The position numbers were made by a program, and so were the translations under genes. From the IMG/VR virus record IMGVR_UViG_3300029476_000074: 5,906 bases of DNA; one strand, given 5' to 3'. This DNA is from a virus. Taxonomy: Duplodnaviria > Heunggongvirae > Uroviricota > Caudoviricetes. Of the stretch, positions 1-5,906 are shown piece after piece. Each line of letters begins with the position of its first letter. The first letter of the stretch is position 1. The notes under the pieces were generated by a model that was not told the origin of the DNA, searched no databases, and was given only the letters and a program-made list of their open reading frames with translations.

Positions 1-170
1 CCGGGAAGTTTGAGCAGAATAACCATGTGGTGATTAACAACGACGGCACGAACGGGCAGATAGGTCCGGCTGCTCTGAAGGCGGTGTATGACATGGCCCG
101 CAAGGGTGCCCGTGATGAAATTCAGACACAGATGCGTGATGGTGGACTGTTCTCCGGAGGTGGACGATGA
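1..170 (+). CDS. H: Tail tape-measure protein, C-terminal end (5'-truncated by window edge)
   Basis: Open frame in codon phase from position 3 to TGA at 168-170, translating ...GKFEQNNHVVINNDGTNGQIGPAALKAVYDMARKGARDEIQTQMRDGGLFSGGGR*. This matches my recollection of the lambda gpH C-terminus. The stop overlaps the next start (ATGA), as in lambda H/M. Lies immediately upstream of M in conserved order. Confidence 0.88.
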   Translation, partial: GKFEQNNHVVINNDGTNGQIGPAALKAVYDMARKGARDEIQTQMRDGGLFSGGGR

Positions 171-496
171 AAACCTTCCGCTGGAAAGTGAAACCCGGGA
201 TGGATGTGACATCGGCTCCTTCCGTCAGGGAGGTGCGCTTTGGTGATGGCTATTCCCAGCGTGCGCCTGCCGGGCTGAACGCTGACCTGAAAACGTACAG
301 CGTGACGCTGTCTGTCTCCCGTGAGGAGGCCACGGCGCTGGAGTCGTTTCTGGCTGAGCACGGGGGCTGGAAGGCCTTTCTGTGGACGCCGCCTTATGGT
401 TACAGGCAGATAAAGGTGACCTGCGCAAAATGGTCGTCGCAGGTCAGTATGTTGCGTGTTGGGTTCAGCGCAGAGTTTAAACAGGTGGTGAACTGA
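167..496 (+). CDS. M: Minor tail protein M (tail tip assembly), 109 aa
   Basis: ORF 167..496 encodes MKTFRWKVKPGMDV...AEFKQVVN, 109 aa, the same length as lambda gpM and near-identical by recollection. GGAGG at 156-160 sits 6 nt upstream of the ATG. Stop TGA 494-496 overlaps the L start (TGATG). Confidence 0.95.
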   Translation: MKTFRWKVKPGMDVTSAPSVREVRFGDGYSQRAPAGLNADLKTYSVTLSVSREEATALESFLAEHGGWKAFLWTPPYGYRQIKVTCAKWSSQVSMLRVGFSAEFKQVVN

Positions 497-1194
497 TGCA
501 GGATATCCGGCAGGAAACACTGAATGAATGCACCCGTGCGGAGCAGTCGGCCAGCGTGGTGCTCTGGGAAATCGATCTGACAGAGGTCGGTGGTGAACGC
601 TATTTTTTCTGTAATGAGCAGAACGAAAAAGGTGAGCCGGTCACCTGGCAGGGGCGGCAGTATCTGGCGTATCCCATTCAGGGGAGTGGTTTTGAACTGA
701 ATGGCAAAGGCACCAGTACGCGCCCCACGCTGGCAGTCTCTAACCTGTACGGCATGGTCACCGGGATGGTGGAAGATCTGCAGAGTCTGGTCGGCGGAAC
801 GGTGGTCAGGCGTAAGGTTTATGCCCGTTTTCTGGATGCGGTGAACTTCGTCAACGGAAACAGCGACGCCGATCCGGAGCAGGAGGTGATTAGCCGCTGG
901 CGCATCGAGCAGTGCAGCGAATTGAGCGCGGTCAGTGCCTCCTTTGTACTGTCCACGCCGACTGAAACGGATGGTGCCGTTTTTCCGGGGCGCATTATGC
1001 TGGCTAATACCTGCACCTGGATCTATCGCGGTGATGAGTGCGGTTATAACGGTCCGGCGGTCGCGGATGAATATGACCAGCCGACGTCCGATATCACGAA
1101 GGATAAATGCAGCAAATGCCTGAGCGGCTGTAAGTTTCGCAATAACGTCGGCAACTTTGGCGGCTTCCTTTCCATTAACAAACTTTCGCAGTAA
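496..1194 (+). CDS. L: Minor tail protein L (tail tip assembly, Fe-S cluster-binding), 232 aa
   Basis: ORF 496..1194 encodes MQDIRQETLNECTRAEQSASVVLWEIDL...FLSINKLSQ, 232 aa, the length of lambda gpL. C-terminal Cys cluster (CTW...DEC...DKCSKC...SGC) at nt 1012-1131. Start coupled to the M stop. Confidence 0.95.
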   Translation: MQDIRQETLNECTRAEQSASVVLWEIDLTEVGGERYFFCNEQNEKGEPVTWQGRQYLAYPIQGSGFELNGKGTSTRPTLAVSNLYGMVTGMVEDLQSLVGGTVVRRKVYARFLDAVNFVNGNSDADPEQEVISRWRIEQCSELSAVSASFVLSTPTETDGAVFPGRIMLANTCTWIYRGDECGYNGPAVADEYDQPTSDITKDKCSKCLSGCKFRNNVGNFGGFLSINKLSQ

Positions 1195-1199
1195 ATCCC

Positions 1200-1943
1200 A
1201 TGACAGAGACAGAATCAGCGATTCTGGCGCACGCCCGACGATGTGCGCCAGCGGAGTCGTGCGGCTTCGTGGTGAGAACGCCGGAGGGGGAAAGATATTT
1301 TCCCTGCGTGAATATCTCCGGTGAGTCGGAGGAGTATTTCCGGATGTCTCCGGAAGACTGGCTGCAGGCAGAAATGCAGGGTGAGATTGTGGCGCTGGTC
1401 CACAGCCACCCCGGTGGTCTGCCCTGGCTGAGTGAGGCCGACCGGCGGCTGCAGGTGCAGAGTGATTTGCCGTGGTGGCTGGTCTGCCGGGGGGCGATTC
1501 ATAAGTTCCGCTGTGTGCCGCATCTCACCGGGCGGCGCTTTGAGCACGGGGTGACGGACTGTTACACGCTGTTCCGGGACGCTTACCATCTGGCGGGGAT
1601 TGAGATGCCGGACTTTCATCGTGAGGATGACTGGTGGCGTAACGGCCAGAATCTCTATCTTGATAATCTGGAGGCCACAGGGCTGTATCAGGTGCCGTTG
1701 TCAGCGGCGCAGCCGGGCGATGTGCTGCTGTGCTGCTTTGGTTCATCGGTGCCGAATCATGCCGCTATTTACTGTGGTGACGGCGAGCTGCTGCACCATA
1801 TTCCTGAACAACTGAGTAAACGAGAGAGGTATACCGACAAATGGCAGCGACGCACACACTCCCTCTGGCGTCACCGGGCATGGCGCGCATCTGCCTTTAC
1901 GGGGATTTACAACGATTTGGCCGCCGCATCGACCTTCGTGTGA
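1200..1943 (+). CDS. K: Tail tip assembly protein K (JAB/MPN + NlpC/P60 two-domain protein), 247 aa as the long ORF
   Basis: ORF 1200..1943. JAMM-like motif HSHPGGLPWLSEAD (HxHx7SxxD) at nt 1401-1442. NlpC/P60-like catalytic Cys in GVTDCYTLF (Cys codon 1560-1562) with a downstream His in PNHAAIY. The C-terminal 199 aa starting at MSPEDW (ATG 1344) correspond to the classical lambda K annotation. ATG 1200 lies 5 nt after the L stop, consistent with coupling. Confidence 0.93.
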   Translation: MTETESAILAHARRCAPAESCGFVVRTPEGERYFPCVNISGESEEYFRMSPEDWLQAEMQGEIVALVHSHPGGLPWLSEADRRLQVQSDLPWWLVCRGAIHKFRCVPHLTGRRFEHGVTDCYTLFRDAYHLAGIEMPDFHREDDWWRNGQNLYLDNLEATGLYQVPLSAAQPGDVLLCCFGSSVPNHAAIYCGDGELLHHIPEQLSKRERYTDKWQRRTHSLWRHRAWRASAFTGIYNDLAAASTFV

Positions 1944-2512
1944 AAACGGGGGCTGAAGCCATCCGCGCACTGGCCACACAGCTCCCGGTGTTTCGTCAGA
2001 AACTGAGCGACGGCTGGTATCAGGTACGGATTGCCGGGCGGGACGTCAGCACGTCCGGGTTAACGGCGCAGTTACATGAGACTCTGCCTGATGGCGCTGT
2101 GATTCATATTGTTCCCAGAGTCGCCGGGGCCAAGTCAGGTGGCGTATTCCAGATTGTCCTGGGGGCTGCCGCCATTGCCGGATCATTCTTTACCGCCGGA
2201 GCCACCCTTGCAGCATGGGGGGCAGCCATTGGGGCCGGTGGTATGACCGGCATCCTGTTTTCTCTCGGTGCCAGTATGGTGCTCGGTGGTGTGGCGCAGA
2301 TGCTGGCACCGAAAGCCAGAACTCCCCGTACACAGACAACGGATAACGGCAAACAGAACACCTATTTCTCCTCACTGGATAACATGGTTGCCCAGGGCAA
2401 TGTTCTGCCTGTTCTGTACGGTGAAATGCGCGTGGGGTCACGCGTGGTTTCTCAGGAGATCAGCACGGCAGATGAAGGGGATGGTGGTCAGGTTGTGGTA
2501 ATTGGGCGGTAA
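1841..2512 (+). CDS. I: Tail tip assembly protein I (ubiquitin-like N-terminal domain, Gly/Ala-rich hydrophobic C-terminal region), 223 aa
   Basis: ORF 1841..2512 encodes MAATHTLPLASPGMARICLYGDLQRFGRRIDLRV...GGQVVVIGR, 223 aa, the length of lambda gpI. Overlaps the 3' end of K by 103 nt in a different frame, the arrangement I recall for lambda K/I. Confidence 0.93.
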   Translation: MAATHTLPLASPGMARICLYGDLQRFGRRIDLRVKTGAEAIRALATQLPVFRQKLSDGWYQVRIAGRDVSTSGLTAQLHETLPDGAVIHIVPRVAGAKSGGVFQIVLGAAAIAGSFFTAGATLAAWGAAIGAGGMTGILFSLGASMVLGGVAQMLAPKARTPRTQTTDNGKQNTYFSSLDNMVAQGNVLPVLYGEMRVGSRVVSQEISTADEGDGGQVVVIGR

Positions 2513-2585
2513 TATTATTTTACTCATGTTCTAACTAATTTAATATTTATATCGAACACTGATAATTATTCTATTGGTTAGCTAT
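2513..2585 (+). promoter_or_regulatory. Putative sigma70-type promoter region for the moron gene (exact -35/-10 uncertain)
   Basis: Very AT-rich 70 bp directly upstream of the lipoprotein ORF with several -10-like hexamers (TAATAT 2541-2546, GATAAT 2561-2566) and weak -35-like elements (TTTACT 2518-2523, TTTAAT 2539-2544). No single convincing consensus pair, so low confidence. Confidence 0.25.
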
Positions 2586-2924
2586 ATGAACAAAACGATT
2601 TTATTCTGCACGATTATTGCCTTAACAGGATGTAAATCTTTGGATTACGTAAAATCCGGAAAACCTGTAATGGAAGGTAATTCATTAAAAAATATTGATG
2701 AATTGTCAGGCTGCATATCCAGACAATGGGCTGGTAATGGAACACCTATAACATCCCTTCCTATTGAGAATGGGGTAAGCCTTTTAGTTCCACAGGCTAT
2801 GGGGGGATATGATGTTGTGCTTGATATCAAAAAAGCAGGAAATGGCAGTAGTTTTACTCTTTATGAACGTGTACCAGCATTAACGCCAAAAATTTTTGCT
2901 GATAGTGTTAATGCATGTAAATAA
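2586..2924 (+). CDS. Predicted lipoprotein of unknown function (phage moron gene), about 112 aa precursor
   Basis: ORF in the track starts at TTG 2574; I prefer ATG 2586, giving MNKTILFCTIIALTGC|KSLDYVKSGKPVMEG... This has a basic n-region, a hydrophobic h-region and a lipobox L-T-G-C with Cys at residue 16, the signal peptidase II signature. Stop TAA 2922-2924. No strong Shine-Dalgarno. Codon usage is AT-rich and unlike the neighbouring genes. I do not recognise the protein family. Confidence 0.7.
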   Translation: MNKTILFCTIIALTGCKSLDYVKSGKPVMEGNSLKNIDELSGCISRQWAGNGTPITSLPIENGVSLLVPQAMGGYDVVLDIKKAGNGSSFTLYERVPALTPKIFADSVNACK

Positions 2925-2948
2925 TAGTTAATCCTGCCGTAACTCATG

Positions 2949-2976
2949 AGCCGCCTTTTGGGCGGCTTTGTTGTTT
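2949..2976 (+). terminator. Rho-independent terminator downstream of the moron gene
   Basis: Inverted repeat AGCCGCC (2949-2955) / GGCGGCT (2961-2967) with a 5-nt loop TTTTG, followed by the T-rich tract TTGTTGTTT (2968-2976). Lies 25 nt after the ORF stop and 15 nt before the J start. Confidence 0.6.
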
Positions 2977-2990
2977 ATGGAGTGTGAGGA

Positions 2991-5906
2991 ATGGGTAAAG
3001 GAAGCAGTAAGGGGCATACCCCGCGCGAAGCGAAGGACAACCTGAAGTCCACGCAGCTGCTGAGTGTGATCGATGCCATCAGCGAAGGGCCGATTGAAGG
3101 TCCGGTGGATGGATTAAAAAGCGTGCTGCTGAACAGTACGCCGGTGCTGGATAGCGAAGGGAATACCAACATCGCCGGTGTCACGGTGGTGTTCCGGGCA
3201 GGTGAGCAGGAGCAGACACCGCCGGAGGGATTTGAATCCTCCGGCTCCGAGACGGTGCTGGGTACGGAAGTGAAATATGACACGCCGATCACCCGGACCA
3301 TCACGTCGGCAAACATTGACCGTCTGCGTTTTACTTTCGGCGTGCAGGCACTGGTGGAAACCACCTCAAAGGGTGACCGGAATCCGTCGGAAGTCCGCCT
3401 GCTGGTTCAGATACAACGTAACGGTGGCTGGGTGACGGAAAAAGACATCACCATTAAGGGCAAAACCACGTCGCAGTATCTGGCCTCGGTGGTGGTGGAT
3501 AACCTGCCGCCGCGCCCGTTTAATATCCGGATGCGCAGGATGACGCCGGACAGCACCACAGACCAGTTGCAGAACAAAACGCTCTGGTCGTCATACACCG
3601 AAATCATCGATGTGAAACAGTGCTACCCGAACACGGCACTGGTCGGCGTGCAGGTGGACTCGGAGCAGTTCGGCAGCCAGCAGGTGAGCCGTAATTATCA
3701 TCTTCGCGGGCGCATTCTGCAGGTGCCGTCGAACTATAACCCGCAGACGCGGCAATACAGCGGTATCTGGGACGGAACGTTTAAGCCAGCATACAGCAAC
3801 AACATGGCCTGGTGTCTGTGGGATATGCTGACCCATCCGCGCTACGGCATGGGGAAGCGTCTCGGTGCGGCGGATGTGGACAAATGGGCGCTGTATGTCA
3901 TCGGCCAGAATTGCGACCAGTCGGTGCCGGATGGCTTTGGTGGCACGGAGCCGCGCATCACCTGTAACGCTTACCTGACCACGCAGCGTAAGGCGTGGGA
4001 TGTTCTCAGCGATTTCTGCTCGGCGATGCGCTGTATGCCGGTATGGAACGGGCAGATGCTGACGTTCGTGCAGGACCGACCGTCGGATAAGGTGTGGACC
4101 TATAACCGCAGTAATGTGGTGATGCCGGATGATGGCGCGCCGTTCCGCTACAGCTTCAGCGCCCTGAAAGACCGCCATAATGCCGTTGAGGTGAACTGGA
4201 TTGACCCGGATAACGGCTGGGAGACGGCAACAGAGCTTGTGGAGGATACGCAGGCCATTCTCCGTTACGGTCGTAACGTCACGAAGATGGATGCCTTTGG
4301 CTGTACCAGCCGGGGGCAGGCGCACCGCGCCGGGCTGTGGCTGATTAAAACGGAACTGCTGGAAACGCAGACCGTGGACTTCAGCGTGGGCGCAGAAGGG
4401 CTTCGCCATGTACCGGGCGATGTCATTGAAATCTGCGATGATGACTATGCGGGGATCAGCATCGGTGGTCGCGTACTGGCGGTGAACAGCCAGACCCGGA
4501 CGCTGACGCTCGACCGTGAAATCACGCTGCCATCCTCCGGCACCACGCTGATAAGCCTGGTTGACGGTGAGGGTAATCCGGTCAGTGTGGAGGTCCAGTC
4601 CGTCACCGACGGCGTGAAGGTGAAAGTGAGCCGTGTTCCTGACGGCGTTGCTGAATACAGCGTGTGGGGGCTGAAGCTGCCGACGCTGCGCCAGCGCCTG
4701 TTCCGCTGCGTGAGTATCCGTGAGAACGATGACGGCACGTATGCCATCACCGCCGTGCAGCATGTACCGGAGAAAGAAGCCATCGTGGATAACGGGGCGC
4801 ACTTTGACGGTGACCAGAGCGGCACGGTGAATGGTGTCACGCCGCCAGCGGTGCAGCACCTGACCGCAGAAGTCACCGCAGACAGTGGGGAATATCAGGT
4901 GCTGGCGCGCTGGGACACGCCGAAGGTGGTGAAGGGCGTGAGATTCCTGCTTCGCCTGACCGTGGCAGCGGATGACGGCAGTGAGCGGCTGGTCAGCACG
5001 GCCCGGACGACGGAAACCACATACCGCTTCACGCAACTGGCGCTGGGGAACTACAGGCTGACAGTCCGGGCGGTAAATGCCCGGGGGCAGCAGGGCGATC
5101 CGGCGTCGGTATCGTTCCGGATTGCCGCACCGGCAGCACCGTCGCGGATTGAGCTGACGCCGGGCTATTTTCAGATAACCGCCACGCCGCATCTTGCGGT
5201 TTATGATCCGACGGTACAGTTTGAGTTCTGGTTCTCGGAAAAGCGGATTGCGGATATCAGGCAGGTTGAAACCACAGCACGCTATCTTGGCACGGCGCTG
5301 TACTGGATAGCCGCCAGTATCAATATCAAACCGGGCCATGATTATTATTTTTACATCCGCAGTGTGAACACCGTTGGCAAATCGGCATTTGTGGAGGCTG
5401 TTGGCCAGCCGAGTGATGATGCATCCGGCTATCTGAATTTTTTCAAAGGAGAGATAGGGAAAACCCATCTGGCTCAGGAGTTGTGGACGCAGATTGATAA
5501 CGGTCAGCTTGCGCCTGACCTGGCTGAAATCAGGACGTCCATTACGGGTGTCAGCAATGAAATCACGCAGACCGTCAATAAGAAACTGGAAGACCAGAGT
5601 GCAGCGATCCAGCAGATACAGAAGGTTCAGGTTGATACAAATAATAACCTGAACAGCATGTGGGCTGTGAAGCTGCAGCAGATGCAGGACGGACGCCTTT
5701 ATATCGCGGGTATTGGTGCCGGTATTGAGAACACCCCTGACGGCATGCAGAGTCAGGTGCTGCTGGCGGCGGACAGGATTGCGATGATTAATCCTGCGAA
5801 TGGCAACACAAAGCCGATGTTTGTTGGGCAGGGCGATCAGATATTCATGAACGAAGTGTTCCTGAAATATCTGACGGCTCCCACCATTACCAGCGGCGGT
5901 AATCCT
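2991..5906 (+). CDS. J: Host specificity protein J / central tail fibre (tail tip), N-terminal ~972 aa, 3'-truncated by window edge
   Basis: ATG 2991 preceded by GGAG (2979-2982). The frame stays open to the last base of the window (2916 nt, 972 codons), which is why it is missing from the ORF track. Translation begins [53 protein letters not shown]... and ends ...[30 protein letters not shown], matching lambda gpJ by recollection over most of its length. Confidence 0.95.

Follow-up and report, generated by a model that had tools for sequence, protein, structure and literature searches.

We analyzed a 5,906-nucleotide (nt) stretch of tailed-phage DNA, IMG/VR record IMGVR_UViG_3300029476_000074 (this whole stretch is called the window below), in which an AT-rich cassette with one lipoprotein gene lies between the lambda-like tail genes I and J. 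Morons hold prophage genes that change the host, such as those for toxins, serum resistance, or phage exclusion. The cassette is very probably an acquired, mobile accessory gene of this moron type, since it occurs in prophages with differing heads, integration sites, and J alleles and has homologues at other junctions. The fuller statement, that this horizontally acquired cassette modifies the envelope so as to exclude other phages, is a serious candidate to which we give somewhat less than an even chance. Such elements are familiar, and databases already list the gene, as a hypothetical protein and in PHROG 914, a family that is uncharacterized and widespread in pathogenic Escherichia coli.

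A first-pass annotation of this DNA had described an abrupt low-GC segment with one gene between I and J, at a place where lambda has only about 60 bp, and had proposed a sliding GC and codon-usage check. Indeed, the GC content of positions 2513 to 2990 is 35.6%, compared with a mean of 58.1% for all 4472 other 478-nt segments of the window (standard deviation, 3.1%; range as a fraction, 0.487 to 0.651; z = -7.4). GC at third codon positions (GC3) is 0.24 in the lipoprotein open reading frame (ORF) versus 0.60 to 0.70 in M, L, K, I, and J, and this ORF, at 2586 to 2924 on the + strand, is the only one in the segment. The lambda I-J spacer is exactly 60 nt long (I ends at 15444 and J starts at 15505), where the window has 478 nt; the flanks are about 96% identical to those of lambda. 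Lambda and more than 100 phage records match just the I and J flanks and not the insert, which bears out the view that extra DNA was acquired at a short conserved spacer. The allele found in Escherichia coli was present in none of 50,697 deposited phage records, which match the I and J flanks only. Among deposited phages, relatives of about 30% identity are limited to Fraca and LMessi.

Alignment of the region to lambda and lambdoid prophages, also proposed by the annotation, was extended to complete E. coli genomes. The cassette is present in 337 of 5426 of these, about 6%, at 97.9 to 99.8% identity. The carriers include UTI89, NU14, S88, IHE3034, APEC O1, ATCC 11775, and O104:H4 2009EL-2050, among them reference strains of uropathogenic, neonatal-meningitis, and avian-pathogenic E. 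coli and of the O104:H4 outbreak. About 8460 places in 4270 genomes have the lambda-type 60-nt junction, versus 349 places with the cassette; about 1 in 25 I-J junctions is thus occupied. The carrier prophages of UTI89 and O104:H4 have lambda-type head genes and lie beside ompW/trp. The ETEC4069 carrier is integrated at dusA and differs in its J, in a longer tape-measure gene, and in a head module with a ClpP-capsid fusion. We propose that homologous recombination within the conserved I and J flanks carries the cassette from one lambdoid prophage to another; other phages have acquired relatives of it at further junctions. As a side observation, the O104:H4 2009EL-2050 carrier prophage (L142, 5069-6998) is probably defective because its large terminase gene is frameshifted; its lipoprotein gene is nevertheless intact, with a protein sequence identical to that of UTI89.

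Homologues of the gene occupy other junctions of the tail operon. In a census of 81 tail-module loci, the window included, 61 are at the I-J junction (the E. coli allele), 11 are at K-I (in Klebsiella, Kluyvera, IMG/VR contigs, Fraca, and LMessi), and 9 are at T-H, in HK97-like prophages of Enterobacter and Citrobacter. All 81 copies are co-oriented with the tail genes. The neighboring genes at K-I and T-H normally abut or overlap, and each copy there is a low-GC ORF followed by a hairpin and a T-run just before the ribosome-binding site of the next gene. Although the tail-tip gene block is often regarded as fixed, insertions recur at several of its junctions. Distant members are found in other settings: one in a Burkholderia gladioli prophage directly downstream of a cI-like repressor gene and co-oriented with it, another antisense within a phage replication module, one in an integrase-bounded island, and one in an ordinary chromosomal neighborhood. 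Together, this shows a lipoprotein family of cells from which temperate phages have taken up one branch again and again.

Some of these loci show further features. In Fraca and LMessi (L002 and L003, 5647-5994), K is followed by a second small ORF whose signal peptide is lipoprotein-like (MRKFLSILACSLIIVGC...), and the PHROG 914 homologue comes after it, so that the K-I junction holds two tandem putative lipoprotein genes; Fraca also has an annotated cor downstream of J. A short metagenomic contig with a 30%-identity homologue at K-I has an extra 93-residue ORF without a Pfam match between its I-like gene and the next large gene (L083, 1158-1439), a further occupied junction in the tail-tip block. 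In the B. gladioli prophage (L136, about 7890 to 7910), a near-consensus LexA box, TACTGTACATAAATACAGTA (CTGT-N8-ACAG), lies about 95 to 110 nt upstream of the homologue P0077, in the interval that separates P0077 from the cI-like repressor gene, which suggests SOS-linked expression of that copy.

To place the limits of the insert, we compared the flanks of 26 distinct cassette-bearing and 49 distinct empty haplotypes. Fixed differences are confined to four sites in the last 13 nt of I (about 2500 to 2512), at -13, -7, -4, and -2 from its end; three are synonymous, and the fourth changes the stop codon from TGA to TAA. There is no cassette-linked fixed difference in the first 400 nt of J. Because the fixed differences are confined to the end of I, with none in J, and the hairpin variant described below is linked to the cassette, the cassette-linked block is about 2500 to 2968. 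This block does not coincide exactly with the 2513 to 2990 given by the first-pass annotation, which had noted that a reference comparison is needed to fix the boundaries. The AT-rich DNA lies between two direct copies of the 7-nt sequence ACTCATG, at 2522 to 2528 and 2942 to 2948. As a target-site duplication this repeat may be due to chance, since the precise empty site that it predicts, TTTTACTCATGAGCCGCC, is absent from IMG/VR.

Downstream of the gene is a hairpin, GAGCCGCC-TTTT-GGGCGGCTT, followed by a T-rich tail; its RNA fold has an energy of -24.4 kcal/mol (z, -2.5). A terminator-like hairpin is present, where the first-pass annotation reported a terminator, but it is not unique to the insert, since the 60-nt lambda spacer holds a homologous hairpin, AAACCGCC-TGC-GGGCGGTTT, at an equal distance from the J start in the alignment, with TTTATGGAG.GTGAGGAATG downstream of it in both lambda and the window. 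Only two hairpin haplotypes occur at IMG/VR junctions. The empty type always has an A-T pair where the cassette type always has a compensating G-C pair, and all 108 occurrences of the cassette type have the lipoprotein gene ahead of them. This "terminator" may be a hairpin already resident in the donor lineage or a cassette-borne replacement; the data fit both. The lambda hairpin itself (15464 to 15483) is a GC-rich, terminator-like structure inside the late operon, conserved at thousands of E. coli prophage junctions; it may be an attenuator, a stabilizer of RNA 3' ends, or the relic of a lost moron.

A hairpin in lambda without a gene to terminate is what would be expected if the gene were ancestral at I-J and had been lost in lambda-type phages, with the 60-nt spacer as a deletion scar. 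The failure to find an exact empty counterpart of the cassette haplotype points the same way. We nevertheless consider this history very unlikely. The low GC3 shows an ORF that has not yet adapted to the composition of the tail genes, empty junctions are about 20 times as frequent and have far more diverse flanks, and the homologues at different junctions in different phages would require repeated gain anyway.

The product is a 112-residue protein with a signal peptide and a lipobox, LTG before Cys16, which is the predicted lipidated residue. The residue at +2 is Lys, and Asp is absent from this position; Lys at +2 of Cys16 indicates, from the sequence, sorting to the outer membrane. An exhaustive profile search gave about 125 cluster representatives at an expectation value (E) of ≤0.001, nearly all of 105 to 125 residues. 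In an alignment of 52 family members, the lipobox [LVI][ASTVI][GAS]C is present in 48, and the +2 residue is A, S, T, G, V, K, E, L, or I but never D. All 52 share Cys16, Cys43, and Cys111, while P27, K35, W48, and G63 are almost as constant. Because Cys43 and Cys111 lie in the two predicted helices, they may form a periplasmic disulfide. AlphaFold2 predicts the mature part as an alpha/beta two-layer sandwich (pLDDT 83.7, pTM 0.76).

Database searches place the protein in a single family. It matches PHROG 914, annotated as function unknown, with an E of 7.3e-33 over residues 1 to 112 and profile positions 1 to 118 of 118, and no other PHROG at an E of ≤1. Neither the single protein nor the 52-member alignment has a sequence relative in Pfam, NCBIfam, PADLOC, or the PDB beyond signal-peptide noise. 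Searching the 52 members against the PADLOC-DB defense models gave no meaningful match, a lone SIR2 hit at an E of 0.007 being noise. The best viral model match is an uncharacterized Pseudomonas phage protein. Public labels for the protein are "hypothetical protein," "Lipoprotein," and "Phage protein," and a second database search likewise yielded no name that points to a function. No paper in the literature library that was searched cites its accession, WP_001332187.

Could this be a chance ORF or a decaying pseudogene in AT-rich junk, without function? The gene has a poor Shine-Dalgarno sequence. Three IMG/VR prophages carry a frameshifted copy split into two ORFs (L068, 3279-3613; L069, 6001-6335; L070, 6001-6338), and the gene is therefore occasionally decaying. 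However, E. coli alleles show synonymous differences (pS) of up to 0.08 and nonsynonymous differences (pN) of about 0.004, a sign of purifying selection. Between genera, dN/dS is 0.06 to 0.3, well below 1, and the protein is conserved over its full length with in-frame indels only. The cluster representatives retain the invariant cysteines, the predicted fold is confident, and the exact protein sequence is present on at least 1000 contigs. Selection and conservation effectively refute this possibility.

Two other roles were considered and ruled out. Tails assemble in the cytoplasm. A lipobox protein is exported from that compartment, and homologues occur outside tail modules, so a structural or assembly role in the tail does not apply. 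A spanin or other lysis role was set aside, since lysis in these prophages is provided for by a cassette of its own that includes an Rz-like gene.

We then compared the gene with known accessory genes of temperate and virulent phages. HK97 gene 15, the founding moron, lies at the T-H junction and encodes a superinfection-exclusion protein (PMC3594210). Like the present gene, it is a small envelope protein gene of deviant composition in a lambdoid siphophage tail operon, with bacterial homologues outside prophages; an Enterobacter homologue of the present gene occupies that same junction, between the tail chaperone gene T and the tape-measure gene. HK97 gp15 differs in being an inner-membrane protein of the YebO family, whereas the present protein is a lipobox lipoprotein with a predicted outer-membrane location and an alpha/beta fold. 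Furthermore, prophage expression and exclusion activity have been shown experimentally for gp15, while the present gene is known from its sequence and predicted structure.

Siphophages also encode lipoprotein exclusion factors, Cor and Llp, beside their J-like hub (PMC11990801, PMC9586334). Cor, from phi80, N15, T1, and mEp167, resembles the present protein in being a small lipoprotein that is encoded in the tail or host-range region of siphophages and acts on the envelope. Unlike it, the FhuA-inactivating Cor has about 77 residues and is encoded downstream of J, and since cor coexists in Fraca with a homologue of the present gene, the two are not substitutes. Llp of T5 binds the periplasmic face of FhuA and serves as a model for a periplasmic lipoprotein that blocks an outer-membrane receptor (PMC9586334, bioRxiv 10.64898/2026.03.26.714494). 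It is likewise a small lipoprotein; it resides in the outer membrane's inner leaflet and is encoded beside a receptor-binding function, but it is an early gene product of a virulent phage and is specific for the receptor of its own phage. There was no Llp chain among the listed sequence or fold matches to solved structures. Lambda Bor/Iss and Lom are, like the present protein, envelope proteins from accessory genes of lambdoid prophages with lower GC. Bor and Lom are encoded at other genome positions, with lom immediately downstream of J in the carrier prophages.

By analogy with these systems, envelope-level exclusion by an outer-membrane-anchored periplasmic protein is the likeliest role, which we rate somewhat below even. 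The lipoprotein would modify the envelope: it might bind an outer-membrane component from the periplasmic side, or it might impede tail-tip penetration or DNA ejection. Expression in the lysogen might be driven by a weak promoter belonging to the gene, in which case the hairpin would keep transcripts from running on into J; alternatively, the gene would be expressed along with the late genes. We infer the exclusion function and the localization, as well as the disulfide and the timing of expression, which would fall in the lysogen, upon induction, or both. If the protein is an exclusion factor, it is relevant to phage therapy against extra-intestinal pathogenic E. coli (ExPEC).

Several observations weigh against this reading. 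A promoter scan found no + strand sigma-70 consensus match within 2300 to 3200, and a relaxed scan of the 21% GC leader gave only 8 to 9 of 12 matches, as such AT-rich DNA would be expected to give; examples are the hexamer pairs TTTACT-16-TAATAT at 2519/2541 and TTAATA-15-GATAAT at 2540/2561. The K-I and T-H homologues are also without a consensus-grade promoter upstream. The hairpin after every copy is circumstantial support for a transcript halted before the next tail gene, but this argument is weakened because the empty lambda spacer has a similar hairpin, so that the hairpin does not prove an independent transcription unit. Homologues in chromosomes outside phage contexts imply that the fold has a cellular role, perhaps unrelated to phages. 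Homology to exclusion or defense proteins was absent in PADLOC, Pfam, and NCBIfam, and with Cor it is limited to the signal peptide: alignment of the family profile to Fraca Cor with hhalign covered only 30 columns, the signal peptide and lipobox. Finally, the gene does not travel with a particular receptor-binding domain. J C-termini 97 to 100% identical to that of the cassette-bearing prophage are common in Shiga toxin (Stx)-converting and other phages without the lipoprotein gene, and the same lipoprotein allele (at least 98% identical) is found with at least four J C-terminal classes that are mutually 21 to 63% identical.

This last point bears on how exclusion might work. A Cor- or Llp-type block of the phage's own J receptor was rejected as the simple reading. 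Because the presence of the gene is uncoupled from the J C-terminus, Cor aligns only at the signal peptide, and Fraca has both genes, a dedicated self-receptor blocker is unlikely; exclusion, if it occurs, would act through something other than the receptor of J. One further idea, which we regard as doubtful, is that PHROG 914 is a widespread class of outer-membrane lipoproteins protecting lysogens independently of the receptor, for example at the passage of the tail tip or tape measure or at a conserved envelope machine. Such protection, if true, would explain why one allele serves different J domains and why the family is retained in phages of Escherichia, Klebsiella, Enterobacter, Pseudomonas, and Burkholderia.

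The strict definition of a moron (Juhala/Hendrix) includes its own promoter (PMC3594210). The first-pass annotation had called the cassette self-contained. This may be so: a hairpin with a T-run follows the gene, is linked to the cassette, and follows every homologue elsewhere, but no consensus-grade promoter was found, and the hairpin has a homologue in the empty lambda spacer. Some homologues have only 6 to 30 nt of upstream spacer. Since the K-I copies start about 30 nt from the K stop codon and the Fraca gene starts 6 nt after another ORF, transcription from the late promoter is the simplest reading for these copies. The gene could then be one of the late genes, read on the tail-operon transcript ("lytic conversion"), with a product that masks or inactivates receptors on the dying cell and its debris and so spares progeny, as proposed for T5 Llp and T1 Cor (PMC11990801). 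The lack of a credible promoter, the co-orientation of every tail-module copy with the tail genes, and the LexA box of the Burkholderia homologue, suggestive of induction-linked expression, all agree with this. Still, we consider it improbable as the function of the gene: there is no coupling to the receptor-binding domain of J, a terminator-like hairpin after every copy would be pointless for a pure read-through late gene, and one homologue lies beside a repressor gene, a position typical of lysogen-expressed genes.

A further possible function concerns the host. A host-fitness factor of lysogenic conversion, similar to Bor/Iss or to Flpp3 of Francisella tularensis (DUF3568), might act in serum resistance, envelope stress tolerance, or host interaction and would explain the abundance in ExPEC; if so, this would be a new lysogenic-conversion gene. 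We think this unlikely. None of the 52 family members matches the Pfam profiles Lambda_Bor/Iss, Ail/Lom, YebO/gp15, or DUF3568 at an E of ≤0.01, which leaves no sequence relation to Bor/Iss or DUF3568. Identity to Flpp3 is 6 to 9%, a resemblance of fold class only, and the fold match is weak and generic, with KA1, DUF302, and Bet v 1-like domains scoring similarly. The strain bias may reflect one prophage lineage in clones like sequence type 95 (ST95), and the family is also found in environmental and plant-associated hosts (B. gladioli and Kluyvera). For experiments, the cassette is a well-defined and cheap target: its boundaries are placed, it has relatives at three tail-operon junctions and beside a repressor gene, and it is uncoupled from J.

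The rest of the window is filled by a lambda-like tail-tip gene block on the + strand, from the end of H through M, L, K, and I to the start of J (see the table). Pfam scores are strong for all flanking tail genes. The block is compact, with overlapping stops and starts as the first-pass annotation had noted: M and L share 1 base, the L-K gap is 5 nt, and K and I overlap by 103 nt. J runs off the end of the window, which holds its first 972 codons.

Table. Features of the window, with the evidence for each
Feature	Positions	Strand	Evidence
M	167-496	+	Pfam
L	496-1194	+	Pfam
K	1200-1943	+	Pfam; JAB and NlpC/P60
Tail assembly gene I (left flank)	1841-2512	+	Pfam Lambda_tail_I, E 1e-28
AT-rich leader, 73 nt, 21% GC	2513-2585	+	Base composition; weak promoter-like hexamers
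Lipoprotein gene, 112 residues, PHROG 914 family	2586-2924	+	ORF list, PHROG match, alignments, AlphaFold2, selection
Signal peptide with lipobox, MNKTILFCTIIALTG followed by C	2586-2633	+	Read from the sequence
Intrinsic-terminator-like hairpin and T-rich tail	2948-2978 (hairpin, 2948-2968)	+	Fold, lambda alignment
Shine-Dalgarno GGAGTGTGAGGA and tip attachment gene J (right flank)	2979-5906 (J start, 2991)	+	Pfam J domains

A search for structured RNA gave a match to the Rfam family GcvB at 2751 to 2976 on the + strand. At 19.1 bits, compared with a gathering score of 42 (E, 0.09), it is below threshold, and we judged it to be due to chance; it extends from the 3' portion of the ORF into the hairpin.

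J of the cassette-bearing prophage is 84% identical to lambda J overall but only about 42% identical over the C-terminal 150 residues that bind the receptor. The GC content of J falls to 0.465 to 0.49 at about 5200 to 5560. From about 5450 (J residue ~822), the sequence diverges from lambda J and contains an insertion of about 27 residues, marking, upstream of the end that binds the receptor, a mosaic joint inside J.

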